Part shown: piece by piece, positions 21,556 to 39,064 of the stretch
How positions within the stretch are numbered: the stretch's first letter is position 1
How the letters are laid out: the number at the start of each line of letters is the position of its first letter
NCBI GenBank assembly: GCA_964633825.1
Contig: CAZWHE010000002.1
Span: forward strand, 4,653 to 68,652
Source of the DNA: an uncultured Phycisphaerales bacterium
Lineage (GTDB): Bacteria; Planctomycetota; B15-G4; CAYZWU01
Direction: 5' to 3'
DNA length: 64,000 bases
Made by a program: the position numbers and the translations under genes
Notes under the pieces: generated by a model
Told to the model about the DNA's origin: nothing
Seen by the model: only the letters and a program-made list of their open reading frames with translations
Databases searched by the model: none

Positions 21556-23508
21556 ATGTGCGGCATCGCCGGGACAATCAGGCTTGACGGGGAAAAAGCC
21601 GACCGCGGTCTTCTGGAAAGAATGATCGACCGGATCAGGTACCGGGGACCGGACGAGACAGGGTTTTTCATCGACGAGAACGCCGGGATGGCTCACGCGC
21701 GGCTCAGCATCATCGACCTGTCCACGGGGAGCCAGCCCATTCACAACGAGGACAAGACCCTGTGGATCGTATTCAACGGCGAGATCTACAATTATGTGGA
21801 GCTGAGAAAGTCCCTCGTGGAGCGGGGCCACCGCTTCACCACAAAGTCCGACACGGAAGTGATCGTCCATCTCTACGAAGAAAAAGGAGAGGATTGCGTC
21901 AACGATTTCAACGGCCAGTGGGCCTTCGCGATCTGGGACACGCGGAAGAGAAAGATCTTCCTCTCGAGGGACCGCCTGGGAATACGGCCCCTCTTCTACA
22001 CGGTCTCAGACAAGGCATTCCTTTTTTCCTCGGAGATCAAGTCGCTGTTCGCCGCCCCGGAAGTGAGACGGGAGCTCGATCCCCGGGCGCTCGACCAGAT
22101 ATTTACGTTCTGGGTCACCATTCCGCCGAAGACGGCTTTCAAGGGAATCCGGGAGCTCCCGCCCGGCCACTCGATGACCATGAAAGACGGCGACGTAAAA
22201 GTACGGCCTTACTGGAAGCCCGATTTTTCCCATATCCCCCGGAAGGTGGACGACAACGAATGCGTCGACAGGCTTCGCTCCCTCCTGATCGATTCGACAC
22301 GCCTCAGGCTCCGCTCCGACGTGCCCGTCGGCGCCTACCTGAGCGGCGGGCTCGATTCGTCCGTCACGACCGCGCTGATCAGAAAATTCAGCGACTCCCG
22401 CCTGAGCTCCTTTTCGATCGTCTTCGACGACGCCGAGTTCGACGAGAGCGGTTTCCAGCGGGACGTGATCGACATGCTTCGAACCGATCACCGGGAGATT
22501 TGTTGTTCCGCGACCGACATCGGCGGGGTTTTCCCCGATGTAATATGGCACTCCGAAAAACCGGTCGTGAGAACGGCCCCTGCGCCTCTCTACCTCCTCT
22601 CCCGCCTCGTGAGAGACAGCGACTACAAGGTCGTCCTCACCGGCGAGGGATCGGACGAGATTCTGGGGGGTTACGATCTGTACAAGGAAGCCAAGATCAG
22701 GAGATTCTGGGGAGCATATCCCGACTCGAAGATCCGCCCGCTCCTTCTGAAAAGACTCTACCCCTACCTGCAGAACATACAGGCGCAGCCCGAAGCCTAT
22801 CTCAAGGCCTTTTTCCACGTGAGGCCCGACGACCTGACCCACCCGTTTTTCTCCCACCTCCCCCGCTGGGAGATGACATCGAAGCTCAAGATCTTCTTCA
22901 GCGACCGGATGAAGTCCGAGCTCAATGGATACAACGCATATGAAGAGCTCGAAAACCTGATTCCGAATGAATACTTCGAATGGGACGGCTTCTGCAGGGC
23001 CCAGTTTCTCGAAAGCACGACCCTTCTCCCCGGCTACATCCTTTCTTCGCAGGGAGACAGGATGGCCATGGCCCACTCGGTGGAGGGAAGGTTCCCTTTT
23101 CTCGACCACCGCGTCGTCGAATTCGCGGCCAGCCTTCCTCCCCGCCTCAAGATGAAGGCTTTGAACGAAAAATTCATCCTGAAGCGGGCCGCCGAGGACC
23201 TGATACCGGCATCGGTCGGGAAGAGGCCGAAGCAGCCCTACCGCGCGCCCGAGGCCGTCAGTTTCATCGGTATGGGGGAACGTTCGAACGGCCGGGATTA
23301 TGTGGAGGAGCTCCTCTCCCGGAAACGCATCGACGAGGCCGGAATATTCAATGCATCGGCAGTGGAAAAGTTGATTGGAAAGATCAAGAGAAGGAAGGCC
23401 ATCGGCATCAAGGACAACATGGCCCTGGTCGGAATTCTTTCCACCCAGCTTCTCTTGGAACAGTTTGTCACTCGATTGGGGAAGATTTCAAACCATGGAA
23501 AAGATTGA
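21556..23508 (+). CDS. asnB: Asparagine synthetase (glutamine-hydrolysing) family amidotransferase
   Basis: 'MCGIAG' class-II glutamine amidotransferase N-terminus and PP-loop 'YLSGGLDSS'. 650 aa. Confidence 0.9.
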   Translation: MCGIAGTIRLDGEKADRGLLERMIDRIRYRGPDETGFFIDENAGMAHARLSIIDLSTGSQPIHNEDKTLWIVFNGEIYNYVELRKSLVERGHRFTTKSDTEVIVHLYEEKGEDCVNDFNGQWAFAIWDTRKRKIFLSRDRLGIRPLFYTVSDKAFLFSSEIKSLFAAPEVRRELDPRALDQIFTFWVTIPPKTAFKGIRELPPGHSMTMKDGDVKVRPYWKPDFSHIPRKVDDNECVDRLRSLLIDSTRLRLRSDVPVGAYLSGGLDSSVTTALIRKFSDSRLSSFSIVFDDAEFDESGFQRDVIDMLRTDHREICCSATDIGGVFPDVIWHSEKPVVRTAPAPLYLLSRLVRDSDYKVVLTGEGSDEILGGYDLYKEAKIRRFWGAYPDSKIRPLLLKRLYPYLQNIQAQPEAYLKAFFHVRPDDLTHPFFSHLPRWEMTSKLKIFFSDRMKSELNGYNAYEELENLIPNEYFEWDGFCRAQFLESTTLLPGYILSSQGDRMAMAHSVEGRFPFLDHRVVEFAASLPPRLKMKALNEKFILKRAAEDLIPASVGKRPKQPYRAPEAVSFIGMGERSNGRDYVEELLSRKRIDEAGIFNASAVEKLIGKIKRRKAIGIKDNMALVGILSTQLLLEQFVTRLGKISNHGKD

Positions 23509-23746
23509 AAAGAACATTCGGCAGTTTGTTGTGGACAACTTCCTCTTTGGACAGGACGACGACCAGCTTGCAAGCGACACGTCTCTCCTGCAGGCCGGCA
23601 TCATTGATTCGACGGGAGTCCTCGAGATCGTCGTTTTTCTGGAAGACGGCTACGACATCAAGGTGGAAGACAGCGAGCTCATACCCGAAAACCTCGATTC
23701 CATCAAGAACCTGGCGGCATTCATCACCACCAAGTCCGCCGGCTGA
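23492..23746 (+). CDS. Acyl carrier protein-like (phosphopantetheine attachment)
   Basis: 84 aa. 'GIIDSTGVLEIVVFLE' matches the ACP 'DSL' Ser-site helix. The preceding ~115 nt of the listed ORF overlap asnB. Confidence 0.6.
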   Translation, partial: TMEKIEKNIRQFVVDNFLFGQDDDQLASDTSLLQAGIIDSTGVLEIVVFLEDGYDIKVEDSELIPENLDSIKNLAAFITTKSAG

Positions 23747-23804
23747 TAGACGCCGGACCCACTCTCTCCAGGCGGTTGATCGGATCGGACGAGGGAGCCT
23801 GATC

Positions 23805-25271
23805 TTGTTTTCGAAGATATTAAACCTGGTTAATTCCAACGAACTGAAGGGGAAGTTCGCACGGGGCGGACTCGTTCTCACGAGCGCCTCGGCCTTCGAG
23901 ATCGGCGCCCGGTTACTGCGCAACGTCATCCTCACCCGCCTGCTCGTCCCCGAGTATTTCGGTCTCATGGCGATGATCATGTCGGTGATGGCTTTCTTCG
24001 AAGCCTTCACCGAGGTCGGGGTCCGGCACGTCGTTATCCAGAACAAGAAGGGGGGATCGGAAGAGTTTCTCAATGTGGCTTGGTGGTTCTCCAGCATCCG
24101 CGGCGCATGTCTTTTTGTTGCGGCTTTTTTCGCCGCCCCCCTTGTCTGCGATTTTTACTGCGCGCGGGAGCTCCTTCTTCCCATTCGGGCGGCCTTTGCC
24201 GCCCTGCTGCTCAACGGCATCGTCAGCCCGAGAATACACGCCCTCGAAAAAGAGCTTAAATACCTGAAATTCGTCGCCATGAAACAGGGTTCGGCCGTGC
24301 TCAACGTGGTGACGGCCGTTGTCCTGAGCCTCTTCATCAAGAGCGTCTGGCCCCTCGTGATCGGGCTCGTCATCGAGTACGCCGGGATCTGTCTCCTCTC
24401 CTACGTCCTGATACCTTTCCGGCCGAAGCTGCGGATCAATAAAACGTACATGGGTGAGATCTTACGGTTCGCCCGAGGAATGTTCGGCCTTCCCATACTG
24501 ACTTTCACATTTTTCCAGTTCGACATTTTCATCATCGGCAAGCTCCTCACCAGAGAGGAGCTGGGGCTCTATTCGATCGCGAGATCGCTCGCGCTCGTTT
24601 CCATACTGGCCTTTTCCAAGATCGTCAGGCCGCTGGTCCTTCCCGCGCTTTCCAAGATCAAAGACTCGAAGAAATCGCTGAAAATGGCCCTGCTCAACAT
24701 AACGGACCTGATCTGTGTCGTCTGCATGCCCTTCACGGCTTTTTGCGTCGTCTTCGCCGAGCCCCTCCTGTCGTTCGCTTACGGACCCAGGTACGGAACC
24801 GTATCCGCCTCGTATTCCATCCTGGCTGTCTACGTCCTGTTCAGGCTCCTCGGCATCATCCTGATGCAGCTTTTCTATGTGCTGGCAGCGCCCCACCTGC
24901 AGAGGCGATTCGCCCTGATCAGGGCCCTCCTCGTTCTCGCCGTCGCCTACCCGGTCGTCAACACATTCGGCCTGGTCGGAGCCGCCATGACCGTCCTGGC
25001 CGGCATGCTGTTCATGCATTCCATGCAGCTGGCCTGCGCGGGAAAGCTCGTGGCGCTGCGCCTGTCCGAATACGCGGGGTGTCTCATACGCGGGGCCGGT
25101 TATTCCTGTATCGTGATTATCCCGGGCCTGGCCGTCCGGTCCTATCTTCCCTATTCCGATCTCCAGACACTCATCATCGGAGTTCTTCTCTGCTTATGCG
25201 CCTGGTGCTTTGCCGCCCGAACCGATCACTACCAGGCGATCGTCCTGGGCGACCAGACCCTGAGTTCATAA
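23805..25271 (+). CDS. Wzx-type polysaccharide flippase (polysaccharide biosynthesis protein family, MOP superfamily)
   Basis: 'LRNVILTRLLVPEYFGLMAMIMSVMAFFEAF' N-terminal motif and ~12 TM helices. An in-frame TTG start follows a GGGAG RBS; upstream in-frame sequence is non-membrane and probably untranslated. Confidence 0.7.
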   Translation: MFSKILNLVNSNELKGKFARGGLVLTSASAFEIGARLLRNVILTRLLVPEYFGLMAMIMSVMAFFEAFTEVGVRHVVIQNKKGGSEEFLNVAWWFSSIRGACLFVAAFFAAPLVCDFYCARELLLPIRAAFAALLLNGIVSPRIHALEKELKYLKFVAMKQGSAVLNVVTAVVLSLFIKSVWPLVIGLVIEYAGICLLSYVLIPFRPKLRINKTYMGEILRFARGMFGLPILTFTFFQFDIFIIGKLLTREELGLYSIARSLALVSILAFSKIVRPLVLPALSKIKDSKKSLKMALLNITDLICVVCMPFTAFCVVFAEPLLSFAYGPRYGTVSASYSILAVYVLFRLLGIILMQLFYVLAAPHLQRRFALIRALLVLAVAYPVVNTFGLVGAAMTVLAGMLFMHSMQLACAGKLVALRLSEYAGCLIRGAGYSCIVIIPGLAVRSYLPYSDLQTLIIGVLLCLCAWCFAARTDHYQAIVLGDQTLSS

Positions 25272-25284
25272 AGGATTTCGAACA

Positions 25285-26163
25285 ATGAGCTTCAATAAAA
25301 CTCTCACAGGAAGGCTGCCCGATTTCTTCATCATCGGCGCGGCCAAATCGGGCACGAGCGCTTTGTTCAATTACCTTGTCAAGCACCCCCAGGTTTTCAT
25401 GCCCGCCGTCAAGGAGACCGAGTATTACAGCAGGGATTCCGTATTCTCCCGGGGAGAAGGCTGGTACAAAAACCTCTTCGTTGATGCGGAAGAGAACCAG
25501 CTCTGCGGAGAGGCCTCGACGACCTATTCGCGATGGCCCCACACACCGGACGCGGCGGCGCGCATCCATCACGACGCGCCCCGGGCCCGGTTGATCTATA
25601 TCCTGCGCCACCCCGTGGAACGCACCTATTCTCACTACGCACACCATATGCGCCGGGGGATCACAATGACATTCGAGGAAGCCCTCGACAGGGACGGCAT
25701 ATACGTCGACTGCAGCATGTACATGAAACAGATCGAAAGGTACCTCCGGTTCTTTCCGAAGGAGCGTTTCCTCATCCTCTTTCAGGACCGGCTCAGGAAC
25801 GATCCCGAGACGGTCCTCGGCAGCGTGGAAAGGCACCTGGGGCTCAGCGAAATCGACCTGACCACAGAAGGCCGCGTGACGAAAAACGTGAGCGGGTCCG
25901 ACTTTTACCTGAGGTCGCAAACAACGGAGAAGCTCAAAAAATTCAAGGCCCTGTCCTGGGTGGCCGACCGGATTCCGCCCGGGATCAGGAAAGGCGCTTT
26001 TTCCGTTTTCAAAAAATCCTGTTTCGGCAAACGCCTCGAAGCCCAATACCGGCTTCCTCCGCTGACGGACAAAACCCGCGAAGAACTGCTCCGCCTGTTC
26101 GAGGAACCGAACAAAAACCTGGAGGACTTTCTCGGCGCGAAGCTCCCCGAATGGAGATCGTGA
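25285..26163 (+). CDS. Sulfotransferase
   Basis: 5'-PSB-like 'FFIIGAAKSGTSALFNYL' and 3'-PB-like 'ILRHPVERTYSHY' PAPS-binding motifs. Confidence 0.75.
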   Translation: MSFNKTLTGRLPDFFIIGAAKSGTSALFNYLVKHPQVFMPAVKETEYYSRDSVFSRGEGWYKNLFVDAEENQLCGEASTTYSRWPHTPDAAARIHHDAPRARLIYILRHPVERTYSHYAHHMRRGITMTFEEALDRDGIYVDCSMYMKQIERYLRFFPKERFLILFQDRLRNDPETVLGSVERHLGLSEIDLTTEGRVTKNVSGSDFYLRSQTTEKLKKFKALSWVADRIPPGIRKGAFSVFKKSCFGKRLEAQYRLPPLTDKTREELLRLFEEPNKNLEDFLGAKLPEWRS

Positions 26164-26220
26164 CGGATCGAGGCAACCGTTTTTGATGTACCTCGTTCCG
26201 CGTTCGAAGACAGAAGAGAT

Positions 26221-27477
26221 ATGGCAAACAAGAACACGACCCCCTTAAAAATCGGCATGGTTCTCTTTTCCCATTACCCGGGGGACGCGAGGCCGCGCCG
26301 CGAATGCGAGGCGCTGACCGGCGCCGGCATGTCGGTGGACATGATCTGTCTCAAAGGCGAGAAGGAACCCCGCAGGGAGACGGTGAACAACGTCTCCGTC
26401 TACAGGATTCCGGTAAGAAAAAAACGGGGATCGAAAGCGCGGTTTCTTTTCGAATATATCCTCTTCTTCATCCTGGCGTTCATCAAGCTGAGCCTCCTCC
26501 AGCTGAGAAGAAGATATCACGTGGTTCAGGCTCACAACATGCCAGACTTCCTCATCTTCACGGCGATCATTCCCAGGCTGATGGGAGCAAAGCTGATACT
26601 CGATCTCCACGATCCCATGCCCGAAGTTTTCGCGGCCAAATACGGGGTGAGCCGCACCGGCTTGTTTATGAAAATCCTCCGCCTCTCGGAAAAACTGAGC
26701 ATCCGGTTCGCCGACCTTGTCCTCACGCCGAACAAGGCGTTTCGCGACATTTTCGCCTCGCGAAACGGGGGAGGGGATAAGATTCGGATCGTCATGAACT
26801 CACCGCAGGAGACCCTTTTTCAGAAACGTGCCGGCCCGAACCCGCGAACGAGTCCGGTCCGGGAGAGATACGTCATGATGTGCCACGGGACCATTGTGGA
26901 ACGCCACGGGATCGACATCGCGCTCGAGGCGTTGAACAGGGTGAAAGAGCGGATAGAAGGAGTCGAGCTCAACGTATACGGAAAGGGCGATTTCGTCGGC
27001 GCCTTTCTGAAGAAAAGGGACGGCCTCGGCCTCGGTGAAATCGTCCATTACCACGGCCACATACCCGTCGACGAGATACCGGGCGAAATCGAGAAATGCC
27101 ACATCGGCCTGATCCCCAACAGGAAAAGCGAGTTCACTGACCTGAATTTCCCGACGTGAATATTCGAGTACATCTGCATGGGCAAACCCGTGATCGCTCC
27201 CAGGACGAAGGGGATATCGGACTACTTTGACGAGAGCTCCATTCACTTTTTCGAAGCCGGAGACGCGCAGAGCCTGGCCGGCAAGATTCTCCATGTCTAT
27301 GGGAACAAGGCCGAAAGCCGGGAAGTCCTCGAGAGGGGCTTCTCCGTCTACAATAAATACAGGTGGGAGAATCAAAGCAGGCGATATAGGAACCTCGTGG
27401 CTTCCATCGCGGGAGCTAGGGATTTCGGATTGAAAGGGGATTGCGGCGCCAGAGCCCCCGAAGAACAAGGCGTTTGA
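26221..27477 (+). pseudogene. GT4 glycosyltransferase interrupted by a single in-frame TGA at 27157-27159
   Basis: ORFs 26221-27159 and 27178-27477 are in the same frame. Translation across the stop reads 'NFPT*IFEYICMGKPVIA', the conserved GT4 motif where Lys is expected. Confidence 0.6.
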
Positions 27478-28732
27478 GCGTTCCGGCGATTGTTTTCCAT
27501 CTCACATGGAGGGGATTTCGCTTCCAGATCTCAAAGAGGCGAAACCCCGTATAGCAGGGCGTGGGCGCCATAAGCATTCTCATTGCCCAGAGCCGTCCGA
27601 AAACGAGCATCCGCTTGCGAACCAGTCCCTGGGCGGCGATGACGTCCGGCGCTGCGGCCGGCGCCAGGTCGAGATAACCGGCGCTTTCGGCGCGATCGAT
27701 GTACTCCCGGCCCCTCTGCGAGCGGACGATGACGAGGGACCGCCCTGCGTCTTCGTTGGAAACGGCGTCTTCGTTGGAAACGGCGTCTTCGTTGGAAACG
27801 GCGTTTTGCTCTTTTCCATAGCGATGCCAAGCATCGCCGCACGAGATGTCGCCCGTCTCGCCGAGTCCGTCGGGGCAGAGATGGCACCGGAAGGGACGGT
27901 GCTTCTGAAGGCTTCCCCATGACTCTTTATAGGTCATCGATTTTTGGTCCGACTCTTCGTTGAAGAGAGCCCTGAATTCCCCCGGCCAGCCGTTGCCCCG
28001 GTAGCGGAGTGTGTTGATTTTTTCGAGGGGAACGTTCATCCGGCGAAGAAGATCGAGGGTTCCCGAGGTGCTCGGCGTGCCGGCGCAGAAAAAGCTGAGC
28101 ACAAGGCCGAGGTTCCTGTCCAGAGCGGGGCGCTTTTTTCTCAGATAGGAAACAGCCTCGACGTCGCAGGGCTTGCCGATGAACACGCAGGGCCCGTCGC
28201 TCTTCTCGATGAGATCGAGGCCGTCGCAGGGAGAGGCCGGGGCGTACCGGGAGCCCGCGTTTTTTATGACCTCGGCCCTCGTCCGGCTCCGCACCGTCAT
28301 GTTGGTCCACGGCTTGGAGGGATTCATTCCCGTATGAAGGAGAAAAGACATTCCTTCTTTTTCAAGGCAATAGAGGGCGAGCGCCGACAGGCACCCGCCG
28401 GACGAAGCGGTGTGCCTCAGCTCCCCGTCGGCAGCGCTTCCCTCCCTGATTTCGAGATACGGACCGAGAAAGAGATCGCCCTCGCTGCGGCCCGGCCCGG
28501 CCGTATCGCTGGAAACGACGTTTTCGCTGCAAACGACGATGCCCGGGCAGATGGAGAGGCATTCCCCGCATCCCGAACAGACCGTGTCGCTGAAACGGGG
28601 CCTGATGCCGGCGGACTCCACGTCAGCGAGCGCGACGGCGTCCTTGTCGCAATAATAAAGGCAGGCGCCGCAGCCGACGCAGAGCCCCCACTCCACGACA
28701 TCGCGCATCGACTTAATTCGACGTGCCGGCAA
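27416..28732 (-). CDS. Coenzyme F420 hydrogenase/dehydrogenase beta-subunit-like Fe-S flavoprotein (FrhB/FdhB family)
   Basis: N-terminal 2x[4Fe-4S] ferredoxin motifs 'CVGCGAC...C' and 'CSGCGEC..C', followed by FrhB-like N and C domains. An alternative start at 28708 (MRDVV) avoids overlap with the upstream gene. Confidence 0.7.
   Translation of the reverse strand: MPARRIKSMRDVVEWGLCVGCGACLYYCDKDAVALADVESAGIRPRFSDTVCSGCGECLSICPGIVVCSENVVSSDTAGPGRSEGDLFLGPYLEIREGSAADGELRHTASSGGCLSALALYCLEKEGMSFLLHTGMNPSKPWTNMTVRSRTRAEVIKNAGSRYAPASPCDGLDLIEKSDGPCVFIGKPCDVEAVSYLRKKRPALDRNLGLVLSFFCAGTPSTSGTLDLLRRMNVPLEKINTLRYRGNGWPGEFRALFNEESDQKSMTYKESWGSLQKHRPFRCHLCPDGLGETGDISCGDAWHRYGKEQNAVSNEDAVSNEDAVSNEDAGRSLVIVRSQRGREYIDRAESAGYLDLAPAAAPDVIAAQGLVRKRMLVFGRLWAMRMLMAPTPCYTGFRLFEIWKRNPLHVRWKTIAGTLKRLVLRGLWRRNPLSIRNP
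27747..27800. repeat. In-frame 18-bp tandem repeat x3 (encodes AVSNED x3 on the minus strand)
   Basis: 'gcgtcttcgttggaaacg' is repeated three times with a degenerate fourth unit, inside the FrhB-like CDS. Confidence 0.8.
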
Positions 28733-30065: not shown

Positions 30066-30650
30066 CTATTCCCGGTGGAACTGAAAAGCTTTCGACATGT
30101 CCCGGGCGGGATTGCCGAGCATGAAGGCGTTGTCGGGAACATCCTTGGTGACGACCGAGCCCGGCCCGATGACAACATTATCGCCGATCGTGATCCCCGA
30201 CAGGATGATCGCGCCCGTGCTCACCCAGACATTGTTCTTGATGACCGTTTTCTTGTACTCGCCCCTGTCGTACCCGAAGACGGCGTGCCTCGGACCGAGA
30301 ATGCTCACATGCGGCCCCGTGGAAAAGTGATCGCCGATCTCGAGCGGTCCCATGAGGATGTTGTGAAGCCCGAAGAGGCAGTTGTTTCCAGCGGTGATGT
30401 CGCCGTTCTTGGCGTTCCAAACGTTGAACTCTTCGATAAAAACATTGTCGCCCACGCGGGCGGAGAAAGGCTCTTTCCTGGAAAGCCTGAAACGATGCCC
30501 GATATCAACGAACCTGCCGCGCTTCAAATACTTGAACCGATAGTACCTGCGCGTCACCATAAAAACGGTTTTCTTGATCATTCCCCTGACGAAGTTATTG
30601 GTGACAAAAGGGAGTTTCGGGCCGGTCGGCGGATTGAAGAGTTCTGCCAT
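30066..30650 (-). CDS. Hexapeptide-repeat O-acetyltransferase (WcaF/NodL/maltose-acetyltransferase-like)
   Basis: C-terminal LbH repeats 'VWVSTGAIILSGITIGDNVVIGPGSVV' and a 'GNPAR' motif. Confidence 0.75.
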   Translation of the reverse strand: MAELFNPPTGPKLPFVTNNFVRGMIKKTVFMVTRRYYRFKYLKRGRFVDIGHRFRLSRKEPFSARVGDNVFIEEFNVWNAKNGDITAGNNCLFGLHNILMGPLEIGDHFSTGPHVSILGPRHAVFGYDRGEYKKTVIKNNVWVSTGAIILSGITIGDNVVIGPGSVVTKDVPDNAFMLGNPARDMSKAFQFHRE

Positions 30651-30784: not shown

Positions 30785-30813
30785 TTGACATTTGGCAATA
30801 AACATTTATATCA
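30785..30813 (+). promoter_or_regulatory. Candidate sigma70-type promoter for the acyl-CoA ligase / nadE-like operon
   Basis: TTGACA, a 16-17-nt spacer, then TATATC. It lies ~25 nt upstream of a GAAAGG RBS and the ATG at 30838, in a divergent intergenic region. Confidence 0.35.
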
Positions 30814-30837
30814 GTAGCGGAAGTTGAAAGGCAAACT

Positions 30838-32382
30838 ATGATCATTTGCGACTATCTCACGAGATCGTGCGAAAGAGACCCCTCAAAGATCTCGGTTTCG
30901 TCCGAATCGGAAAGCATCGACTACGCCGCGCTTCTGAGCCGCGCGCGAAGATTTTCATGCGCCGCCAGGGCCGCCGGGCTCCGACAAGGAGACCGGGTCG
31001 TTCTCTTCACCGACAACTCCGTGGGATACGTTGTCTCCTATTTCGGCGTGCTCCTCGCCGGGGGCGTGGTCGTGGGACAGTCGACGGCCAACAAAGAGCG
31101 GCACCTCAAGAACATCATCAACCACTGCGAGGCCGCCGGCGTCGTCACCTCGGGCCGGAGCATACGAACACTCCACAACGTGGCTGCCGAGTGTCCGTCC
31201 TTGAAATTCCTGTTCTACGACGGATCGTTTCCCAGGGAAACGGTTTTCCAAGGAATGACCTGCCGGGAACTGGGCGACATCTACGGCGGCCGGTATGACG
31301 ACGGGTTCCGGACGACAACAAGCCCGGACGATCTGGCCCAGATCATATACACGTCCGGAACGACGGGAAATCCCAAGGGAGTCATGCTCTCCCACAAAAA
31401 CCTCCGCGCCAACACGGAATCGATCATCGAATACCTGAAGCTCACCCCCGACGACCGCGCCATGGTCGTCATGCCTTTTTACTATTCCTACGGAAACAGC
31501 CTCCTTCTCACACACATCGCCTGCTCGGGGAGCCTGGTCATCGACAACCGCTTCGCCTTCCCGCGAAAGATACTCGAGCGCATGGCCGAGGAAGAAGCGA
31601 CCGGTTTCGCCGGCGTTCCCTCGACCTTCGCCATCCTCCTGCACAAGGCCGGGCTGGGCGGGTTCGGCCTCCCCTCTCTCCGGTACGTGACCCAGGCGGG
31701 GGGCGCCATGTCCCCGGCCCTGACCAAGGAGCTGAGGGACGCCGTCCCGGGCGCCGACATCTACATCATGTACGGCCAGACCGAAGCCTCGGCGCGCCTG
31801 TCCTACCTCGAACCGGAGAGGCTGGCGGACAAACTGGGCACCATCGGCAAGGCCATTCCGGGAGTGACCCTCGACGTGAAAAACGAAAAGGGCGCCCCCG
31901 TCGTTCCGGGAGAGGCCGGCGAGATCGTCGCCCGGGGCGACAACATCATGATGGGCTACTGGAAAAATCCGCGGGAGACTCAAAAAGTGATCAGGGAAGA
32001 CGGCCTCCACACGGGCGATCTCGCCACCGTCGACGACGAGGGATTCATATACATCGTGTCGAGAAAGTCGGACATGATCAAATCGGGCGCCCACAGGATC
32101 AGCCCAAAGGAAATAGAAGAAGTGATCATGGAGGACGATCGGGTCCACGAAGTCGCCGTCGTGGGCGAGCCCGACCCCGTGATGGGCGAAACCATCGTCG
32201 CCCTCGTTGTTTCGAAGGCAGGCGCCCGGCTGGACGCCAACGACCTCTCCCGGCTCTGCAACAGGCACTTGCCCCTTTACAAGATGCCGAAAAGGATCGA
32301 GTTCAAAAAAGAGCTCCCCAAGACGGCTTCGGGCAAGATCAAGAGGGACCTCCTGCGCAGAGAGTTGAACCTATCTTCCTAA
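30838..32382 (+). CDS. AMP-dependent synthetase/ligase (acyl-CoA or acyl-ACP ligase-like)
   Basis: AMP-binding motif 'IIYTSGTTGNPKGVMLSHKNL', 'YGQTE', 'GDLATVDDEGFIYIVSRKSDMIKSGAHRISPKEIE', and the terminal Lys region 'LPKTASGKIKR'. Confidence 0.85.
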   Translation: MIICDYLTRSCERDPSKISVSSESESIDYAALLSRARRFSCAARAAGLRQGDRVVLFTDNSVGYVVSYFGVLLAGGVVVGQSTANKERHLKNIINHCEAAGVVTSGRSIRTLHNVAAECPSLKFLFYDGSFPRETVFQGMTCRELGDIYGGRYDDGFRTTTSPDDLAQIIYTSGTTGNPKGVMLSHKNLRANTESIIEYLKLTPDDRAMVVMPFYYSYGNSLLLTHIACSGSLVIDNRFAFPRKILERMAEEEATGFAGVPSTFAILLHKAGLGGFGLPSLRYVTQAGGAMSPALTKELRDAVPGADIYIMYGQTEASARLSYLEPERLADKLGTIGKAIPGVTLDVKNEKGAPVVPGEAGEIVARGDNIMMGYWKNPRETQKVIREDGLHTGDLATVDDEGFIYIVSRKSDMIKSGAHRISPKEIEEVIMEDDRVHEVAVVGEPDPVMGETIVALVVSKAGARLDANDLSRLCNRHLPLYKMPKRIEFKKELPKTASGKIKRDLLRRELNLSS

Positions 32383-32405
32383 CCCGGTTATTTAGAGGAT
32401 TGACA

Positions 32406-33365
32406 ATGGAATTTTCCAAAGACTCACTCAAACTGGATTGCGAACAAGAAGTCGGCCGCCTCGTCACGCAGATGAGAGAGAGCGTCCGCGCGTTCAAGCG
32501 CGGGGGAGCCGTCATCGGGATCTCGGGCGGCATCGACTCCAGCGTGGTGCTGGCCCTGTCGGCCCGCGCCTTCGGCCCGGAGAAGGTCATCGGGATCTCC
32601 ATGCCCGAAAAGGAGACGTCCACTGTCTCGTCCCCGCTGGCCGAAGAGCTCTCCCGCAGGTTCGAAACGACCTACATCGTGGAAGACATCACGCCCACCC
32701 TGGAAGGAGCCGGCACCTATCGAAAGAGGGACGACGCGATCCGTGAGCTGATTCCGAGCTACGGACCGGGCTGGACGTGCAAGATCGTGCTGCCCCAGAA
32801 CCTTCTCGAAAAGGGCGGGCTGAACATCTTTTCCGTTGTCGTCGAATCGCCCGACGGTGAGAGCATCTCGAAGAGGCTCTCTCCCAAGAGCTACCTCCAG
32901 ATCGTGGCCGCGTCGAATTACAAGCAGCGCACGAGGATGATGACCCTCTACTACCACGCCGAGAAGAATAACTATGCCGTGATCGGCACGGGGAACAAGA
33001 ACGAGCACGACCAGGGGTTCTTCGTCAAGTACGGCGACGGCGGCGCCGACATCAAGCCGATCGCCCGCTATTTCAAGACCCAGGTCTACCAGCTCGGCGA
33101 ATACCTCGGCGTCACCGAGGAGATACTGAAGAGAACGCCCACGACGGACACCTATTCGGCCGAGGTCACCCAGGAGGAGTTTTTTTTCCGCCTCGACTTC
33201 GAGAAGCTCGACCTGATCTGGTACGCCTTGGATAAGGAAATCCCCGCGGAAAAAACGGCCGACGTGCTGGGCCTGACGGCCGAGCAGGTCGAGAGGGTTC
33301 AGAACGACATCATCCAGAAAAAGCGGACCACCGAATATCTCAGGGCGAACCCCGTCGAGCTCTAA
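32406..33365 (+). CDS. nadE: NH3-dependent NAD+ synthetase-like PP-loop ATPase (NadE family)
   Basis: PP-loop 'GISGGIDSSVV', and 'GFFVKYGDGGADIKPI' matching the NadE 'GFFTKYGDGG.DI.P' motif. ~45 aa longer than typical NadE. Confidence 0.7.
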   Translation: MEFSKDSLKLDCEQEVGRLVTQMRESVRAFKRGGAVIGISGGIDSSVVLALSARAFGPEKVIGISMPEKETSTVSSPLAEELSRRFETTYIVEDITPTLEGAGTYRKRDDAIRELIPSYGPGWTCKIVLPQNLLEKGGLNIFSVVVESPDGESISKRLSPKSYLQIVAASNYKQRTRMMTLYYHAEKNNYAVIGTGNKNEHDQGFFVKYGDGGADIKPIARYFKTQVYQLGEYLGVTEEILKRTPTTDTYSAEVTQEEFFFRLDFEKLDLIWYALDKEIPAEKTADVLGLTAEQVERVQNDIIQKKRTTEYLRANPVEL

Positions 33366-33374
33366 CGGCCGATT

Positions 33375-34280
33375 TTATGAACCGCGCCCCCTTCCCCACA
33401 GGCGCTTCAGCCATTGAACGGCGTTTCTCCGCTGTTGTTTCTTCAAAGCTTTTCTGAATTCCGGGGATTCCGTCTCTTCGCCCCCGGCCAGGGCGCGAAA
33501 ATATCCCTTCAACATATAATAGCCGATCCTCGGGCTCCTGTTGAACACGACCTGCTTCGCCGCGTGGAGCAGGAAATGCCAGAAGTACCCGCCCATGTAG
33601 CGACTCGTGTTCCCGTACTTGAGCCCCGCTTTTTTCAGGCCCTCCCCCTCGGCCCGGCCCGTGGGCTTCAGATGGATGATCTTCAGGGAGTCGATCTGGC
33701 CTGTTTTCCATCCCTTCATGCCTGCCCGGATCGTGTCGACCCCGTCCCAGCCCGACCGGCTGATGAGACCTCCGATCTCTTCGAAGCACTTCTTCCTGTA
33801 GAACTTGCACGCACCGCTCACAAAACCCTCGGGAACGATCACCTCCTTGAGCGGCCCCGAATCCCTTATCCTCTCGAACCGCGTTCCCCCCGTGACGCCG
33901 AGCTCGGGATCGTCGCGGAAGGCTTTGCAGATCCTTTCGATCGTGTCGTCGGGAAACTCCAGGTCACCGTCGAACTTGGACACGATGTCGTACTCGAGAT
34001 CGCCGATCTCGGCGAGCCCCCTGTTGAACGACTCGATCACGCCCTCGGCCGGTTTCCGGCATCCCCTGTCGGGAAGAGAGACATATTCCACGAAAGAACG
34101 GCCGGCCGTTCCCTCCTGGACGATCCTTCCCGTTTCGTCGGTGCTCCCGTCGTCAACGACGATCCACTTGACGGGCTTGTGCGTCTGCCCGACCATGCAT
34201 CGAACGGTCGTTCCGATGTGGCGCCCCTCGTTTCTGACGGGAGTTATGATGACGACTCGCATTCCCGTATTTTCGCCCAA
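33375..34280 (-). CDS. Family 2 glycosyltransferase
   Basis: 'MRVVIITPVRNEGRHI...WIVVDDGSTDET' and a 'DGD' motif. The likely start is the Met at 34262. Confidence 0.75.
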   Translation of the reverse strand: MGENTGMRVVIITPVRNEGRHIGTTVRCMVGQTHKPVKWIVVDDGSTDETGRIVQEGTAGRSFVEYVSLPDRGCRKPAEGVIESFNRGLAEIGDLEYDIVSKFDGDLEFPDDTIERICKAFRDDPELGVTGGTRFERIRDSGPLKEVIVPEGFVSGACKFYRKKCFEEIGGLISRSGWDGVDTIRAGMKGWKTGQIDSLKIIHLKPTGRAEGEGLKKAGLKYGNTSRYMGGYFWHFLLHAAKQVVFNRSPRIGYYMLKGYFRALAGGEETESPEFRKALKKQQRRNAVQWLKRLWGRGRGS

Positions 34281-34524
34281 AGTCCGCGGCTGACTGAAAG
34301 AAATATTCTACCGGGATAGAGAGACCGCGGGAAGAGGGGTCGGCCTCGAGCGGGACTGCTCCGGCCGGGACAATAATATGTTATATTTATTTGCATTGTT
34401 GCTTTGTTTGCATTACACTCTTTAATTGCCTTCGCCCGAAACCGGGACACGGAAAGCCTGTTAATAACATCATCATGCCTAAACAAAACAGACATTCCCA
34501 GATCTCGAAAGGAGGCCGTTTTCC

Positions 34525-36195
34525 ATGAAACAAATTACCGCAATCCTGTTGTGCCTGTCCTTTCTTTTCCTGACAGCTTCCGCACAGCCGGACCAATCCC
34601 GACAGCCCGGCCGCCAGCCGATCCGCGTGGTCTATGTCAACCACGTGGAAGTGGAGAGCGTCATCGACAATATCGGCCCTCTGGTCAATGGAACGACCTA
34701 CACCGCCACGCCTTCCCGCTACGCCTACACACAGGGCCAGATCGACTGGGAGATCGCTCGGACCGAATCGGTCGGCGCCGTGATCTCCTTTCACATGAGC
34801 GGGGCGTTCGCCGAGATGGCCGATCTGATGGGCCACAAACCGGTCTGGAGCTTCCGCCTCGACCGGGGCCACACCGTGGGCGTTCACACACACAAGTTTC
34901 TGCGCGCCGGACCCCGCCTCTGGACCTATGAAACCAACGCCGCTCAGCCGGAGATCAACCAGCACTGGCAGGACAACTATGATCTGGCCGGCAGCCTCGT
35001 CGGGACTTCGAACCTCTGGGTGGGCGAATCGCACTACTTTAGTCAAACCATGTGGACCCTGCTCGGTTACAGTCTCAAAACGACCGAGGCCATGGCCCTC
35101 CTCCCCGCAGACCAGCACATTGTCTGGCTTGTGGAACGCGATCAGCAGGGCACTGTCACCTACCCTCATTTCCCCCAGATCGGCCAGGCTGGCTGGCACG
35201 GACCCGTGGGCAGCCAGATCTACTTTGATCTGCGCACTCCCCAGCTCAAAAAGGAGTTCCTCATGCTCCTCATGGAATGGCTGGAACGGGAGAGGCTCGG
35301 CCTGGAGCCCCAGGTCTGGGCCTGGGGATGGTGCAATCACGGCGGCCATAGCACGGAGTTCTACGCCGCCGAAATCGAGGAGATGCTTAACTGGCTGGAG
35401 AGCGAATTCATCGACAGAACATCGCCGCGGGGAAACACGATCGCTCTGTTCGCCGGCGACCACGGCCTCAAGGACGCCTACGAGGATTATGAACAGGCCG
35501 GCGGACAGCCTCTTCCGTCGCCCCAGACAAATGTGAACGACCAGTTCCCGTACATGGCCGAAGCCCTGGCCGATGCCGGCGTCACCGTCGACCTGACGGG
35601 CGATCTCGGTCTGCCCGGCGTCCGTCTCTTCGAGATGGAGCGGGACTCGGCAGACAACCCGCCCGCCGGAGACCCGCCCCGCCTCTATCTCGTCTTTCGG
35701 GAGAACGACGGAAGCGATCCCATCGACCTCGGACCCATTCTCGCGAGCCAGGGCATCTACGGCCCCTTCGCCCGCTCGTACGACGTGGTCAACGGCGGCT
35801 GGAGCACGGCGCGCGTCGACGATCTCATCATCGGTTCGGCACCGCTCGTCGTGGAACCGATGCCGGGCCTCGAGGTGTCGCCTCTTCAGCTCGGGCAGCC
35901 GGCCTTCTTCAGGGCGACCAACGGCGAGCCGGGCGGCACGGTGCACTTCATATACAGCCTCGCCGGCCCCGGCTCCACCTGGGTGCCCCAGCTCGACGAT
36001 TTCGTCGACCTCGCCTCGCCCCTCTACAATCCGGGAAGCGCTTTTGTCGATGCCCAGGGAGAAGCCATTCTCAGCCGGAACGTTCCCCCCGGCGCGCCGC
36101 TGATCGATGTTTCGTTCCAATCGATCCAGCTCACTGCGGACGGTTTGAAAAAGTCAAATGTTGTGACCGCTTCGGTCACAAGGGAGTCCCCATGA
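34525..36195 (+). CDS. Secreted protein of unknown function
   Basis: Strong RBS AAAGGAGG and signal peptide 'MKQITAILLCLSFLFLTASAQ'. The long antisense ORF 34387-36120 is treated as an artefact. Confidence 0.6.
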   Translation: MKQITAILLCLSFLFLTASAQPDQSRQPGRQPIRVVYVNHVEVESVIDNIGPLVNGTTYTATPSRYAYTQGQIDWEIARTESVGAVISFHMSGAFAEMADLMGHKPVWSFRLDRGHTVGVHTHKFLRAGPRLWTYETNAAQPEINQHWQDNYDLAGSLVGTSNLWVGESHYFSQTMWTLLGYSLKTTEAMALLPADQHIVWLVERDQQGTVTYPHFPQIGQAGWHGPVGSQIYFDLRTPQLKKEFLMLLMEWLERERLGLEPQVWAWGWCNHGGHSTEFYAAEIEEMLNWLESEFIDRTSPRGNTIALFAGDHGLKDAYEDYEQAGGQPLPSPQTNVNDQFPYMAEALADAGVTVDLTGDLGLPGVRLFEMERDSADNPPAGDPPRLYLVFRENDGSDPIDLGPILASQGIYGPFARSYDVVNGGWSTARVDDLIIGSAPLVVEPMPGLEVSPLQLGQPAFFRATNGEPGGTVHFIYSLAGPGSTWVPQLDDFVDLASPLYNPGSAFVDAQGEAILSRNVPPGAPLIDVSFQSIQLTADGLKKSNVVTASVTRESP

Positions 36196-37418
36196 TTGCG
36201 ATCCTCATCCCTCTGATTCTGGCATTTCCCCAATGGGAGCCGGGAACCAACCTCGGCCCGAACATCAACACGGCCGGCACGGAAAAAGCGTCGGACATCT
36301 CGGCCGACGGCCAAACCCTCTATTTCAGCAGCCAGACCCTGTCGGGCGACATCAACATCTACATGTCCACCTGGACCGGCGCCGAATGGAGCACCCCTGT
36401 CGACCTCGGCCCCCCGGTCAACTCCATCCACAACGACTGGGGGCCTTCGATCTCCGGAGACGGCATGACGCTTTACTTCGGTTCCGACCGGCCGGGAGGG
36501 TACGGCAGTTACGACATCTATTCCAGCACCAACGCGGGCGGCGTCTGGCAGACGCCGGTCAACCTCGGGCCCTCCATCAACACGAGCGAGGGCGAGCTCG
36601 GCCAGGACATCCGCCCCGACGGCGCGGTCCTCTTCTTCGCCCGGGGCTGGCCGCCCCAGGGAGGATCTTCTGACGAAAACATTTACTGGTCCGAATACAC
36701 CGGGGGCTCGTGGACACAGGCGCAGCCCTGGGAACAGAACACGTCCGAGATCGAAGACAACCCCAACATCTCCGACGACGGCACGCTGCTCTATTTCTCG
36801 GCCCGCTATACGAGCGGCGGCTACGGCGATTTCGACATTTACGTGTCGCGCTATGAAAACGGCCGTTGGCAGACGCCGATCAACCTCGGGCCCGGCATCA
36901 ACACGGAGCATCACGACGCCAATCCCTCGGTCACGACGGACGGGCGGCAGCTTCACTATACGAGCAAGGACCCGTCGGGCTACGGCTACTTCGACCTCTA
37001 CGTCTCCGACAAATCGGACGAGGTGGGCGAATACGGCTCGGGTCTGGCCGGAAGCGGCGGGTTCGTTCCGCGGCTCGAGGCCGACACGCCCGTGATCGGC
37101 GGCGCCTTCCAGCTCTCACTGCTCGACGGCCTGGGCGGCGCAGCGGGCCGGCTGCTCGCTTCGCGGGCTGCGGACAGCCAGCCCTTCGGAGGCGGGACGC
37201 TCCTCGTGGACACGGCGCAGCTCACGCACAACGTGCCTCTTCATCTCGACGGAACACCCGGCGCGCCCGGAGCGGGCACGGAGACCCTGTCGACCCGGAT
37301 TCCGTCCAATCCCCTGCTCTACGGGACCGAATATTACCTCCAGGCGATTCTGTTCGACGGGGGGGCGGTGGGCGGATATTCCATGACGGCCGGCACCAAG
37401 CTGATCCTGACCTACTGA
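36192..37418 (+). CDS. Periplasmic PD40 / WD40-like beta-propeller repeat protein (TolB-like repeats)
   Basis: At least 6 repeats of 'NLGPxINTxxxExxPSISxDGxxLYFSSDRxGGYGxYDIYxS'. Confidence 0.65.
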   Translation: MIAILIPLILAFPQWEPGTNLGPNINTAGTEKASDISADGQTLYFSSQTLSGDINIYMSTWTGAEWSTPVDLGPPVNSIHNDWGPSISGDGMTLYFGSDRPGGYGSYDIYSSTNAGGVWQTPVNLGPSINTSEGELGQDIRPDGAVLFFARGWPPQGGSSDENIYWSEYTGGSWTQAQPWEQNTSEIEDNPNISDDGTLLYFSARYTSGGYGDFDIYVSRYENGRWQTPINLGPGINTEHHDANPSVTTDGRQLHYTSKDPSGYGYFDLYVSDKSDEVGEYGSGLAGSGGFVPRLEADTPVIGGAFQLSLLDGLGGAAGRLLASRAADSQPFGGGTLLVDTAQLTHNVPLHLDGTPGAPGAGTETLSTRIPSNPLLYGTEYYLQAILFDGGAVGGYSMTAGTKLILTY

Positions 37419-37585
37419 TTAGCCGCCTTCATGCACCCGCACCATACACCTTTCCGGGTTCCGGTGCAGGAGAGAAAAGGGGTTCCCCGAATTCGGCATT
37501 AATGCTAACATCCCCTTGAATATCCTTTTTACAGGGCTATTCATACCTTCGCGTCTTTTCGATCCGAGAAATGAGATAAATCGCA

Positions 37586-39064
37586 ATGAAGATCGCCATG
37601 CTCAATGTCTCCGGACGGCTCTCATCCGAAGGCTCCCGGCTCATCTCGTCCCTCCTGAAGAAGGACGGTCATTCGATCACAAACATCTTCCTGGCCCGGG
37701 GCTTCCCGATCCAGTACGAGAGAGAGGAGCTCGAACAGCTTCACGAGATCCTGAAGAACGTCGATCTCGCCATGGTGGCCGTCTACAGCCAGTTCTCCTA
37801 CAGGGCGGTGCAGGTCACCGAGTTCATTCACAAGCACTATCCCGGCATGAAAGTGATCTGGGGCGGACCCCACTGCGTCGCCTCGCCCGAGCTCAGCCTC
37901 GACATCGCCGACGGCGTCTGCTTCTCCGAAGGCGATATCTGCGTCCCCGAGTTCGTCAAAAAGCTCGAGGCCAACGACGAAAGCTACCTCGAGACGCCGA
38001 ACATGGCTTTCAGGGTGAACGGATCCAACATCGTGAACGAGATCCTGCCCCCTTTCAAGGACCTCAACAGCCTCCCTTTCTGCGACTTCACCCTTGACGG
38101 GAACTTCATCCTCGACAAAACGCTGAAACCGCTCTCCAAGGAGCTGATGCAGACCTACCTCTCCACCTTTCCCTACGGCGGGCCCACGTTCCACACCGTC
38201 ACGTCCCGCGGCTGCCCCCACCGCTGCTCGTACTGCAACAACTGCCGTTACATCGCCATGTTCGGCAGAAACGCCATCCGCAAACAGAGCGTTGACCGGT
38301 TCATGGACGAGCTGGAGCACCACCTCGGCATCGTGGAATCGGTGAAGGGTATCTGCCTCTCGGACGACGACTTTCTCATCCGCCCGGTGAGGGAGCTCGA
38401 ACAGTTCGCCGAGCGATACAAGAAGAACATCGAATTCCCCTTTCTCGTCTGCATGAGCGCCAAGACCTACCGGAAGGAGAAGATCGACGTTCTCCTCGAC
38501 GCGGGGATCAAGTTCGTCGTCATCGGCGTCCAGTCGGGAAGCGACCGGACCCTGGAAGAGGTTTTCGACCGGCCGATCCCGCTCACCAAGATCAAGGAGA
38601 TCGTCCGCGAGCTGGAGCCCTATTACAAAAAACACGACCTGCGGATGTCGCTCGACTTCATCACCGACGTCCCCTACGAGACGCGGGAAGATCTCGCCGA
38701 CACGTACAAGTACATCCTCGACCTGCCCCGGCATTCGAGGATCCAGTTCTACACCCTCTACTTCTCGCCGGGAACGCCGATCTACGACAGGGCGCTCAAG
38801 GACGGCATCATCGAGCCCTTCAGCGACAAGACGTTCCGCTCCCTCGACGACAAGATCACGTACCAGAAAAACTACGAGACCTTCCTGATCTTTTTCTTCA
38901 TCTTCCTCCACCGCCGCCGGCTGAGGCGGTTCATCCCCACTTTCCTCCTCCGCCTCATGGCGGCCCGGCCGCTGCGCGCGGCCGTAAACCTCCTGCCGTG
39001 GAAAGCGATCCAGGCTCCCCTGATTGTCGTCCGGAAGCTGACGCCCGACACGTCGGTGACATAG
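37586..39064 (+). CDS. B12-binding domain / radical SAM protein (class B radical SAM, possible methyltransferase)
   Basis: N-terminal cobalamin-binding-like Rossmann segment, radical SAM 'CPHRCSYC' (CxxxCxxC), and a 'VIGVQSGSD' glycine-rich motif. Confidence 0.85.
   Translation: MKIAMLNVSGRLSSEGSRLISSLLKKDGHSITNIFLARGFPIQYEREELEQLHEILKNVDLAMVAVYSQFSYRAVQVTEFIHKHYPGMKVIWGGPHCVASPELSLDIADGVCFSEGDICVPEFVKKLEANDESYLETPNMAFRVNGSNIVNEILPPFKDLNSLPFCDFTLDGNFILDKTLKPLSKELMQTYLSTFPYGGPTFHTVTSRGCPHRCSYCNNCRYIAMFGRNAIRKQSVDRFMDELEHHLGIVESVKGICLSDDDFLIRPVRELEQFAERYKKNIEFPFLVCMSAKTYRKEKIDVLLDAGIKFVVIGVQSGSDRTLEEVFDRPIPLTKIKEIVRELEPYYKKHDLRMSLDFITDVPYETREDLADTYKYILDLPRHSRIQFYTLYFSPGTPIYDRALKDGIIEPFSDKTFRSLDDKITYQKNYETFLIFFFIFLHRRRLRRFIPTFLLRLMAARPLRAAVNLLPWKAIQAPLIVVRKLTPDTSVT

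Follow-up and report, generated by a model that had tools for sequence, protein, structure and literature searches.

A conserved four-gene cassette with a NadE-like member in a surface-polysaccharide locus of an uncultured Phycisphaerales bacterium, and its possible role in amidation

The stretch of DNA considered here, referred to as the window throughout, comprises 64,000 nucleotides of a contig (CAZWHE010000002.1) from an uncultured Phycisphaerales bacterium. From 10353 to about 34280 it carries a Wzx/Wzy-dependent surface-polysaccharide locus, in which an AsnB-type glutamine amidotransferase, an acyl carrier protein (ACP), an AMP-forming ligase and a NadE-like PP-loop protein make up one conserved four-gene cassette. 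Conserved gene context makes it very probable that these four genes act in one pathway and that the NadE-like protein is not the housekeeping NAD synthetase. For the stretch as a whole, the best explanation, to which we give a somewhat better than even chance, is a polysaccharide locus with an amidation cassette that would make an amide-bearing acyl group. Little is known of the ways in which bacterial polysaccharides acquire amide and unusual acyl substituents. Apart from the cassette the locus is ordinary-looking, its sulfation, pyruvylation and acetylation genes being ordinary in kind, and the main value of the present analysis lies in the cassette itself and in the probable misnaming of its NadE-like member.

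Genes were assigned from profile matches and from the genes called on L001, an identical contig of a JGI metagenome. The cassette consists of the following genes, lengths being given in amino acids (aa) and profile scores in bits with the model cutoff after them.

21556-23508, plus strand: cassette gene 1, AsnB-type glutamine amidotransferase (Asn_synthase 298 bits, GATase_7 165 bits)
23495-23746, plus strand: cassette gene 2, phosphopantetheine carrier protein of 83 aa (PF00550, PP-binding, 23.6 vs 20.8 bits)
30838-32382, plus strand: cassette gene 3, AMP-forming adenylating ligase (profiles)
32406-33365, plus strand: cassette gene 4, NadE-like PP-loop ATP pyrophosphatase (profiles)

The catalytic motifs are intact in all the cassette enzymes. 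AsnB begins with MCGI, which keeps the glutaminase Cys2, has the PP-loop SGGLDS and passes TIGR01536 (537 vs 267). The initial annotation of this DNA had announced a free-standing ACP; it does exist, and its place is 23495-23746, overlapping the AsnB stop codon, with Ser39 in GIIDST. This open reading frame (ORF) was located through the L001 gene calls and then confirmed by Pfam, a strict regular expression for the carrier-protein motif having given no match. Its top NCBIfam match, NF052616, scores 74.8 and stays below the cutoff of 130; an identity as an OlsH/OlsI ornithine-lipid ACP was rejected, the score being below cutoff and a GH3-like enzyme not present. The called start of the NadE-like gene lies two codons inside an ORF of 321 aa at 32400-33365 and gives a 319-aa form.

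In the window the cassette is split, with about 7 kb between an AsnB-carrier half (21556-23746) and a ligase-NadE half (30838-33365). The genes between the two halves encode the Wzx flippase, a sulfotransferase, a GT4 glycosyltransferase, a pair formed by an FrhB-like protein and a pyruvyl transferase, and a hexapeptide transferase of the left-handed beta-helix (LbH) type. The same split cassette is found in the close relatives L007 and L015, and a contiguous AsnB-ACP-Lig-NadE arrangement (Lig being the ligase) in other Zixibacteria (L023, L029 and L074).

The extent to which the four genes stay together was followed in GTDB species-representative genomes, which were scanned with an alignment of the NadE-like protein. 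The best 80 of 259 relatives were taken, from Zixibacteria, Ignavibacteria, Calditrichota, Acidobacteriota/Aminicenantes and Chloroflexota, and were pooled with an Acidobacteriota locus from an earlier look-up (L008) to give 81 loci. When the ORFs up to 7 kb from the NadE-like gene were all clustered de novo, four neighbours alone proved widely kept: a carrier protein of 87 aa in 52 loci, a ligase of 519 aa in 48, an AsnB of 663 aa in 29 and a second NadE-like paralogue in 16. Where at least 5 kb of flank was available on both sides (49 loci), the carrier stood within 5 kb of the NadE-like gene in 34, the ligase in 36, AsnB in 20 and the second paralogue in 11; one or more cassette partners were present in 45/49 and two or more in 37/49. 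The last two counts are lower bounds, the AsnB gene of the window itself lying 9 kb from its NadE-like gene.

The cassette occurs in several gene orders: AsnB-ACP-Lig-NadE, ACP-Lig-AsnB-NadE, NadE-ACP-Lig-NadE2, NadE-ACP-Lig-AsnB and AsnB-NadE-ACP, with the ligase and NadE-like genes reversed in L008, where an exosortase gene lies 5 kb away. Because the order is shuffled, functional linkage is indicated rather than inherited synteny. Inheritance of the four genes together, with their enzymes intact, extends across phyla. Where AsnB is absent, the second NadE-like paralogue, of full length and 37-47% identical, takes the fourth position; in 16 species a carrier-ligase pair has one such paralogue on either side, and both paralogues of one cassette pass the NAD synthase model. 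The ligase adjoins the NadE-like gene in every closest-relative context, including one that is not a polysaccharide locus (L003). Other recurrent neighbours are genes for Wzz, UDP-sugar 6-dehydrogenase, NAD-dependent epimerase, LbH transferase, FemAB-like GNAT and deacetylases. The initial annotation had already counted the NadE-like gene among the tailoring genes of the locus, and that it is no bystander is strongly supported by its genomic linkage to ligase, carrier and AsnB across many phyla.

In Acidobacteriota the order is NadE'-(SGNH-like lipoprotein)-NadE-Lig. The lipoprotein between the two NadE-like paralogues (cluster c14: L008, L019, L035, L036 and L039; for example L027 3360-4298) is about 300 aa long and has no Pfam or NCBIfam match; SGNH/GDSL-like motifs are visible by eye (GHQSVG ... 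DGGH), and it could be an extracytoplasmic transferase of the cassette system.

A translated search of plasmid and chromid records revealed the cassette in cultured Proteobacteria as well. A full-length relative of the NadE-like protein, at 36-52% identity, is present in 117 records, 76 of them from Sinorhizobium and the others from Ensifer, Mesorhizobium, Shinella, Azospirillum, Rhizobium, Nitratireductor and Roseateles. On Sinorhizobium meliloti pSymB and in Mesorhizobium, Nitratireductor, Roseateles and Azospirillum, asnB, the acyl carrier protein, a class I adenylate-forming enzyme and a gene labelled "nadE: NAD(+) synthase" make up a single operon whose stop and start codons often overlap. 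The operon lies inside a glycosyltransferase/flippase/O-antigen-ligase locus in Roseateles and Azospirillum thermophilum. On pSymB of S. meliloti 1021 it occupies 1450582-1455388 of NC_003078.1 (L092, L096), about 2.5 kb from minCDE. Between the window and S. meliloti the identity is 52% for AsnB, 47% for the carrier, 39% for the ligase and 50% for the NadE-like protein. A module kept at 39-52% identity from Zixibacteria to rhizobia implies a constant chemistry, whether at the cell surface or in metabolism.

The pSymB copy also bears directly on the function of the NadE-like protein. S. meliloti cured of pSymB, with the essential genes relocated, grows well in minimal medium (PMC4207669), which rules out the pSymB NadE-like protein as the essential NAD synthetase. 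Given that the operon is carried by S. meliloti pSymB, a question raised by an uncultured genome becomes open to standard genetics and polysaccharide chemistry. Two side observations concern these proteobacterial cassettes. The operon is part of the conserved pSymB backbone, being present in 76 Sinorhizobium records with 95-100% DNA identity within S. meliloti. A 370-aa hypothetical protein and a methyltransferase adjoin the cassette in Mesorhizobium ciceri and lie 10 kb off in S. meliloti; the hypothetical protein of about 370 aa found beside proteobacterial cassettes gave no match in Pfam.

How then does the NadE-like protein of the window compare with NAD synthetases proper? It shares with NadE (PF02540; NF002048/PRK00876) the PP-loop SGGxDS, here SGGIDS at residue 40, the core motif GTxNxxE...KYGDGGAD and the fold, and with these the expected chemistry of carboxylate adenylation and ammonia attack. 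The best Foldseek matches of its AlphaFold (AF2) model (pLDDT 86) are 2e18, 3fiu and 1xng, each at probability 1.00, with target-normalised TM-scores of 0.82-0.85 against NadE structures. It differs from NadE in an insertion of about 58 residues (a helix and three strands, residues ~104-157) with invariant residues across 26 sequences, in its low identity (18-28%) to any solved NadE, in cassette partners that are not NAD genes, and in the location of the pSymB copy on a dispensable replicon. The family has at least 8000 relatives at E <= 1e-20, and WbpG/WbuX/PseA N-acetyl-sugar amidotransferases are not among the NCBIfam matches of the window protein at E <= 1e-3. Taken with the genomic context, these features suggest that the protein works like NadE, a carboxylate being adenylated and ammonia displacing the adenylate, but most probably on a different substrate.

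On the chemistry of its members, a mechanism for the cassette could be envisaged, which as a whole we regard as doubtful. The substrate of the ligase would be a carboxylic acid other than an amino acid, perhaps a small dicarboxylate, which the enzyme would adenylate and load on the carrier protein as a thioester. AsnB with glutamine and the NadE-like enzyme with ammonia would each adenylate a free carboxylate and turn it into an amide at the cost of ATP, the free carboxylate of the dicarboxylate being amidated while on the carrier. The resulting amide-bearing acyl group would then be passed to the sugar chain by a nearby acyltransferase, for which the LbH transferase at 30066-30650 is the candidate; it stands divergent beside the ligase gene in L005-L007 and L015 too. 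A non-amino acid substrate is favoured because the nearest solved relatives of the ligase are fatty-acyl-, malonyl- and oxalyl-CoA synthetases and because the ligase appears to be without the Asp that binds the alpha-amino group in amino-acid-activating adenylation domains. Its PFYYSYG presumably sits where the adenylation domains of nonribosomal peptide synthetases have FDxS, a placement judged by motif and not by alignment.

Several known systems resemble the cassette in part. Exosortase A (XrtA)/PEP-CTERM loci come to mind first, and the initial annotation had likened the combination of AsnB, ACP and ligase to them. The resemblance is real: AsnB and the ligase match the corresponding models over nearly their full length, these models being in the top two for each, L008 has its exosortase 5 kb from the cassette, and FemAB-like and DUF3473 deacetylase genes are neighbours in related loci. 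The XrtA-specific models, however, score far below cutoff in the window as well as in cassette representatives. AsnB reaches 463.5 with the XrtA/PEP-CTERM amidotransferase model TIGR03108 (cutoff 816.9; cassette representative L063 427.7), and the ligase 387.2 with the exosortase A acyl-CoA ligase model TIGR03098 (cutoff 592.35; cassette representatives 385.6 and 385.1). The export and initiation proteins likewise stay below the XrtA cutoffs (pepcterm_export 89/180, pepcterm_ChnLen 124/279, pepcterm_TyrKin 112/231, EpsB_2 134/393). No exosortase domain (PF09721) was found in the roughly 66 window ORFs scanned and no PEP-CTERM-like tail in any window ORF of at least 80 aa, as had been stated at the outset. 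Members of the TIGR03098 family are expected to have an adjacent pyridoxal phosphate-dependent decarboxylase (TIGR03099); no decarboxylase domain was found among the scanned ORFs between 7 and 45 kb of the window, nor among the conserved neighbours of the 81 loci. The founding paper of the PEP-CTERM system, moreover, does not mention a NadE-like member. Membership of the locus in the exosortase-A system, judged by these profiles, is not supported.

Pairs of a carrier and an AMP-ligase are known to build N-acyl groups, as RfbK/RfbL of Vibrio cholerae O1 do with tetronate on perosamine, and DltA/DltC serve in D-alanylation. As in these systems, a small carrier and an adenylating ligase stand in a surface-polymer locus, with an acid loaded and then moved to the polymer. 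In contrast to Dlt, the carrier fails the DltC model NF003464 (25.9 vs 68), the ligase apparently is without the Asp of amino-acid-activating domains, and neither the window nor the set of conserved neighbours yielded MBOAT/DltB. Unlike both systems, the cassette has two ATP-dependent amidating enzymes as obligatory members, and Rfb-type tailoring genes are not present.

AsnB-type genes are already known from O-antigen loci, and AsnB-family enzymes act on non-asparagine substrates in several pathways: OxyD (malonamyl starter unit), AsnO (synthesis of N-acetylglutaminylglutamine amide, NAGGN), TsnB9 and LtsA/AsnB1 (peptidoglycan amidation). The window AsnB resembles them as a paralogue with intact glutaminase Cys2 and PP-loop, and among its solved relatives a hydroxyamidotransferase (7ylz) scores almost level with E. 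coli AsnB. The likeness of the window ligase to malonyl-CoA synthetase is what an OxyD-like scheme would need, but a polyketide synthase is not present; as to AsnO, the NAGGN amidotransferase model TIGR03104 is not reached (396 vs 570).

A number of points weigh against an amidation cassette that serves the polysaccharide. The NadE-like protein passes the NAD(+) synthase models (NF002048 445.4 vs 313; TIGR00552 151.6 vs 63.65; PF02540 168 vs 21), and NAD synthetase activity would be compatible with its sequence and predicted fold. The initial annotation had named a grouping with housekeeping orthologues as the outcome that would tell against it; the sequence does pass NF002048, and the conserved context is the cassette and not NAD metabolism. 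More distant members of the NadE-like family may behave differently. S. meliloti, Nitratireductor and L003/L011 have the cassette by itself and at a distance from sugar genes, which weakens the view of a polysaccharide substituent; in Nitratireductor the stand-alone cassette is beside Tn7-like genes. Linkage to a transferase is inconsistent, an LbH transferase being present in 10/81 loci. The polysaccharide locus may be partly inactivated in the source population, a broken GT4 gene possibly meaning decay. Finally, a literature search found no publication or experiment on the cassette, nor on NadE in PEP-CTERM or pSymB contexts.

Such stand-alone operons, near minCDE on S. meliloti pSymB and beside Tn7-like genes in Nitratireductor, would suit a cassette that makes a free small molecule (an amide metabolite, an osmolyte or a signal), its position in polysaccharide loci then being due to co-regulation or horizontal transfer; so would the isolated ligase-NadE pair of L003 and a transferase that is not universally linked. 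We consider this unlikely, however, given that in most Zixibacteria, Ignavibacteria, Calditrichota and Chloroflexota loci, as well as in Azospirillum and Roseateles, the cassette lies among glycosyltransferase, flippase, Wzz, UDP-sugar dehydrogenase and epimerase genes. Polysaccharide genes interrupt the cassette in the window and its close relatives, where it has nonetheless been kept, and neither a thioesterase nor an exporter is among the conserved cassette neighbours of the 81 loci.

More improbable still is a scheme in which AsnB and the NadE-like protein amidate the carboxylates of uronic acids, a UDP-uronic acid mimicking nicotinic acid adenine dinucleotide as a nucleotide-diphospho-carboxylate, with ligase and carrier supplying a separate acyl decoration. 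Known AsnB paralogues do amidate carboxylates of the cell wall or of O-antigens (LtsA/AsnB1 and WbpS), and recurrent cassette neighbours do include UDP-sugar 6-dehydrogenase (c16, 10 loci) and NAD-dependent epimerase (c11, 15 loci). Yet no UDP-sugar 6-dehydrogenase was found among the scanned window ORFs, and the scheme leaves unexplained why carrier and ligase stay with the amidating enzymes in sugar-free stand-alone operons. It is very improbable that the locus edge simply has two housekeeping genes, the NadE-like one coding for an ammonia-dependent NAD+ synthetase and the other for a fatty-acid CoA ligase of the ordinary kind: the NF002048 and TIGR00552 scores, the fold and motifs of NadE, the ligase-NadE pair in a non-polysaccharide context (L003/L011) and its place at the locus edge in L005-L007 are outweighed by partners within 5 kb in 45/49 loci with shuffled orders in at least five phyla, by two NadE-like paralogues around one carrier-ligase pair in 16 species, by the coupled operon with asnB and ACP in rhizobia, by the dispensable pSymB copy, and by conserved neighbours that in the 81 loci include no NAD-pathway gene.

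The reading we prefer, a polysaccharide locus with an amidation cassette, could have wider consequences. It is possible, if rather short of an even chance, that the proteins of about 320 aa named "NAD(+) synthase" under NF002048, or at least the clade at least 50% identical to the window protein, are not NAD synthetases and instead mark a previously undescribed carrier-protein-dependent pathway, with AsnB or a second NadE-like paralogue, the carrier and the adenylating ligase as its other members, that puts amide-bearing acyl groups on surface polysaccharides, from Zixibacteria and Acidobacteriota to rhizobia. Should the cassette reading be true, the name NAD(+) synthase and the Gene Ontology term "NAD biosynthetic process" would be wrong for this clade, and NAD reconstructions of uncultured phyla would be misled.

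The remainder of the polysaccharide locus, whose encoded proteins have their closest relatives in Zixibacteria and similar metagenome-assembled genomes, comprises the following genes; the window has a G+C content of about 58% and many antisense ORFs.

10353-11234, plus strand: Wza-like exporter (Pfam, NCBIfam)
11254-12918, plus strand: Wzz/GNVR chain-length protein (Pfam, NCBIfam)
12905-13603, plus strand: tyrosine autokinase (Pfam, NCBIfam)
13616-14758, plus strand: polyprenyl glycosylphosphotransferase with an odd N-terminal cytosolic domain (Pfam, NCBIfam)
14831-17565, plus strand: amino-sugar trio of a GFO/IDH/MocA 3-dehydrogenase-like protein, a hexapeptide N-acetyltransferase and a DegT aminotransferase (profiles)
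15932-16435, plus strand: the LbH hexapeptide N-acetyltransferase of this trio (profile)
17644-19035, plus strand: Wzy-like membrane protein with 11 predicted transmembrane segments
true start near 19029, end 19973, plus strand: GT2 glycosyltransferase
19970-21496, plus strand: beta-helix protein with a signal anchor
23805-25271, plus strand: Wzx/MOP flippase (profiles, L001 gene call, 15 hydrophobic segments)
25285-26163, plus strand: sulfotransferase (Sulfotransfer_1 PF00685 66.4 vs 22 bits; PF13469 60.3 vs 27)
26221-27477, plus strand: GT4 glycosyltransferase with an in-frame TGA at 27157-27159 (profile)
27416-28732, minus strand: FrhB/FdhB-like Fe-S flavoprotein (profiles)
28713-30062, minus strand: polysaccharide pyruvyl transferase (PF04230, PS_pyruv_trans, 79.4 vs 25.3 bits)
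30066-30650, minus strand: hexapeptide (LbH) acyl/acetyltransferase, divergent from the ligase (profiles)
33375-34262, minus strand: GT2 glycosyltransferase (profile and L001 gene call), the probable 3' end of the locus

The tailoring genes fall into three units: the sulfotransferase, the pyruvyl transferase with its FrhB-like flavoprotein, and the four-gene cassette. The initial annotation had described the span 21556-39064 as a locus dense in polymer-tailoring enzymes, and the profile searches, in which PS_pyruv_trans and Sulfotransfer_1 pass, recovered every enzyme type that it listed with catalytic motifs intact, AsnB, AMP-ligase, sulfotransferase and pyruvyl transferase with FrhB-like partner among them. 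Its placing of some genes has to be amended: one of the two hexapeptide transferases lies in the span (30066-30650) and the other upstream of it (15932-16435), and the polymerase that it had put inside the span, the Wzy-like protein, lies upstream at 17644-19035. A heavily decorated polysaccharide is a reasonable reading of such a gene set, and the predicted chemistry would be sulfate, pyruvate ketal, N-acyl and amide groups on the polymer.

The tailoring genes recur in a set of orthologous loci (L005-L007, L010 and L015). In these the sulfotransferase is kept beside Wzx, the FrhB-like and pyruvyl transferase genes, which overlap in the window, are kept as a pair, and the LbH transferase has the same position. 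The sulfotransferase has near its N-terminus the KSGTS motif (GAAKSGTS) that binds 3'-phosphoadenosine 5'-phosphosulfate. The top equivalogs of the pyruvyl transferase are WcaK and CsaB, both below their cutoffs. Within the export and initiation module (10353-14758) TIGR01007 is passed (112.7 vs 108), and the top NCBIfam match of the 3-dehydrogenase-like protein in the amino-sugar trio is UDP-GlcNAc 3-dehydrogenase, whose cutoff of 450 exceeds the 176 bits scored.

The GT4 gene is probably a pseudogene. The TGA at 27157-27159 aligns with an Arg codon (CGA) of the intact 401-aa orthologue in L005, a CGA-to-TGA nonsense change, and the JGI contig L001 has this stop too. Recoding of this TGA was ruled out, TGA being the ordinary stop of 14/21 neighbouring genes, and a 99-aa ORF at 27178-27477, considered as a carrier protein, proved to be the C-terminal piece of the broken GT4. 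Three long ORFs were also rejected as genes (27506-29960 and 33414-34319 on the plus strand, 34387-36120 on the minus strand); they are antisense and have no family matches, while their opposite-strand partners have such matches or are called genes.

The priming glycosylphosphotransferase (13616-14758) has a single hydrophobic segment, and a cytosolic domain of about 130 aa replaces the usual N-terminal membrane domain. This domain has a weak, sub-threshold likeness to the GGDEF diguanylate cyclase (TIGR00254 23.5 vs 37.4), and could be a module that senses cyclic di-GMP. Directly upstream of the polysaccharide export genes, and divergent from them, a type II secretion (T2SS)/type IV pilus-like cluster occupies 1217-10372 on the minus strand, with three prepilin-type N-methylation-motif proteins (two with a T2SS-G domain), GspF, a GspE/MshE-N ATPase, a secretin and a T2SSB/SctD-C-like protein.

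Beyond the 3' end of the polysaccharide locus lie three further genes.

starts 34525, plus strand: secreted protein of 556 aa without a family match
36192-37418, plus strand: PD40 beta-propeller protein
37586-39064, plus strand: B12-binding radical SAM enzyme

None of the three occurs in the orthologous loci (L005-L007, L010 and L015), where the NadE-like gene comes last and is followed by unrelated genes; the three are probably neighbours outside the polysaccharide system. Of the single locus first drawn from 21556 to 39064, the part 34525-39064 probably falls away and the rest stands. The radical SAM enzyme passes Radical_SAM (65.4 vs 29.5) with its CxxxCxxC motif present (CPHRCSYC), its B12-binding domain scores 30.0, just under the cutoff of 32.1, and it reaches no NCBIfam equivalog cutoff, the best being HpnJ (90 vs 578). 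A part in C-methylation or other tailoring of the sugars, as first suggested for it, was rejected: besides its absence from the orthologous loci, homologues at 53-64% identity lie in three contexts examined, none of them a polysaccharide locus, namely among triose-phosphate isomerase, secG and guanylate kinase genes (L089), beside a lipid A acyltransferase gene (L090) and among tRNA synthetase genes (L091).

The family of B12-binding radical SAM enzymes to which the window protein belongs is widespread, at about 50-55% identity across phyla. Two tandem paralogues stand among tpiA, secG, gmk and rpoZ at L089 5250-8235, from the same metagenome sample as L001, and one of them shares 64% identity with the enzyme of the window. 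A different assembly of this population (L099 1-610, compared with window 34525-36195) shows the 556-aa protein as two calls, a 136-aa one and a 387-aa one that the contig end cuts off, a split that suggests a frameshift variant or an assembly difference. Further downstream, 39180-51166 encodes two extracytoplasmic function sigma factors (one with a zf-HC2 anti-sigma factor), a double-PDZ protein, a BlaR1-type M56 peptidase, a TonB-dependent receptor, a YfiR/HmsC-like protein and a sulfatase, the last of which could be related to the turnover of a sulfated polymer.

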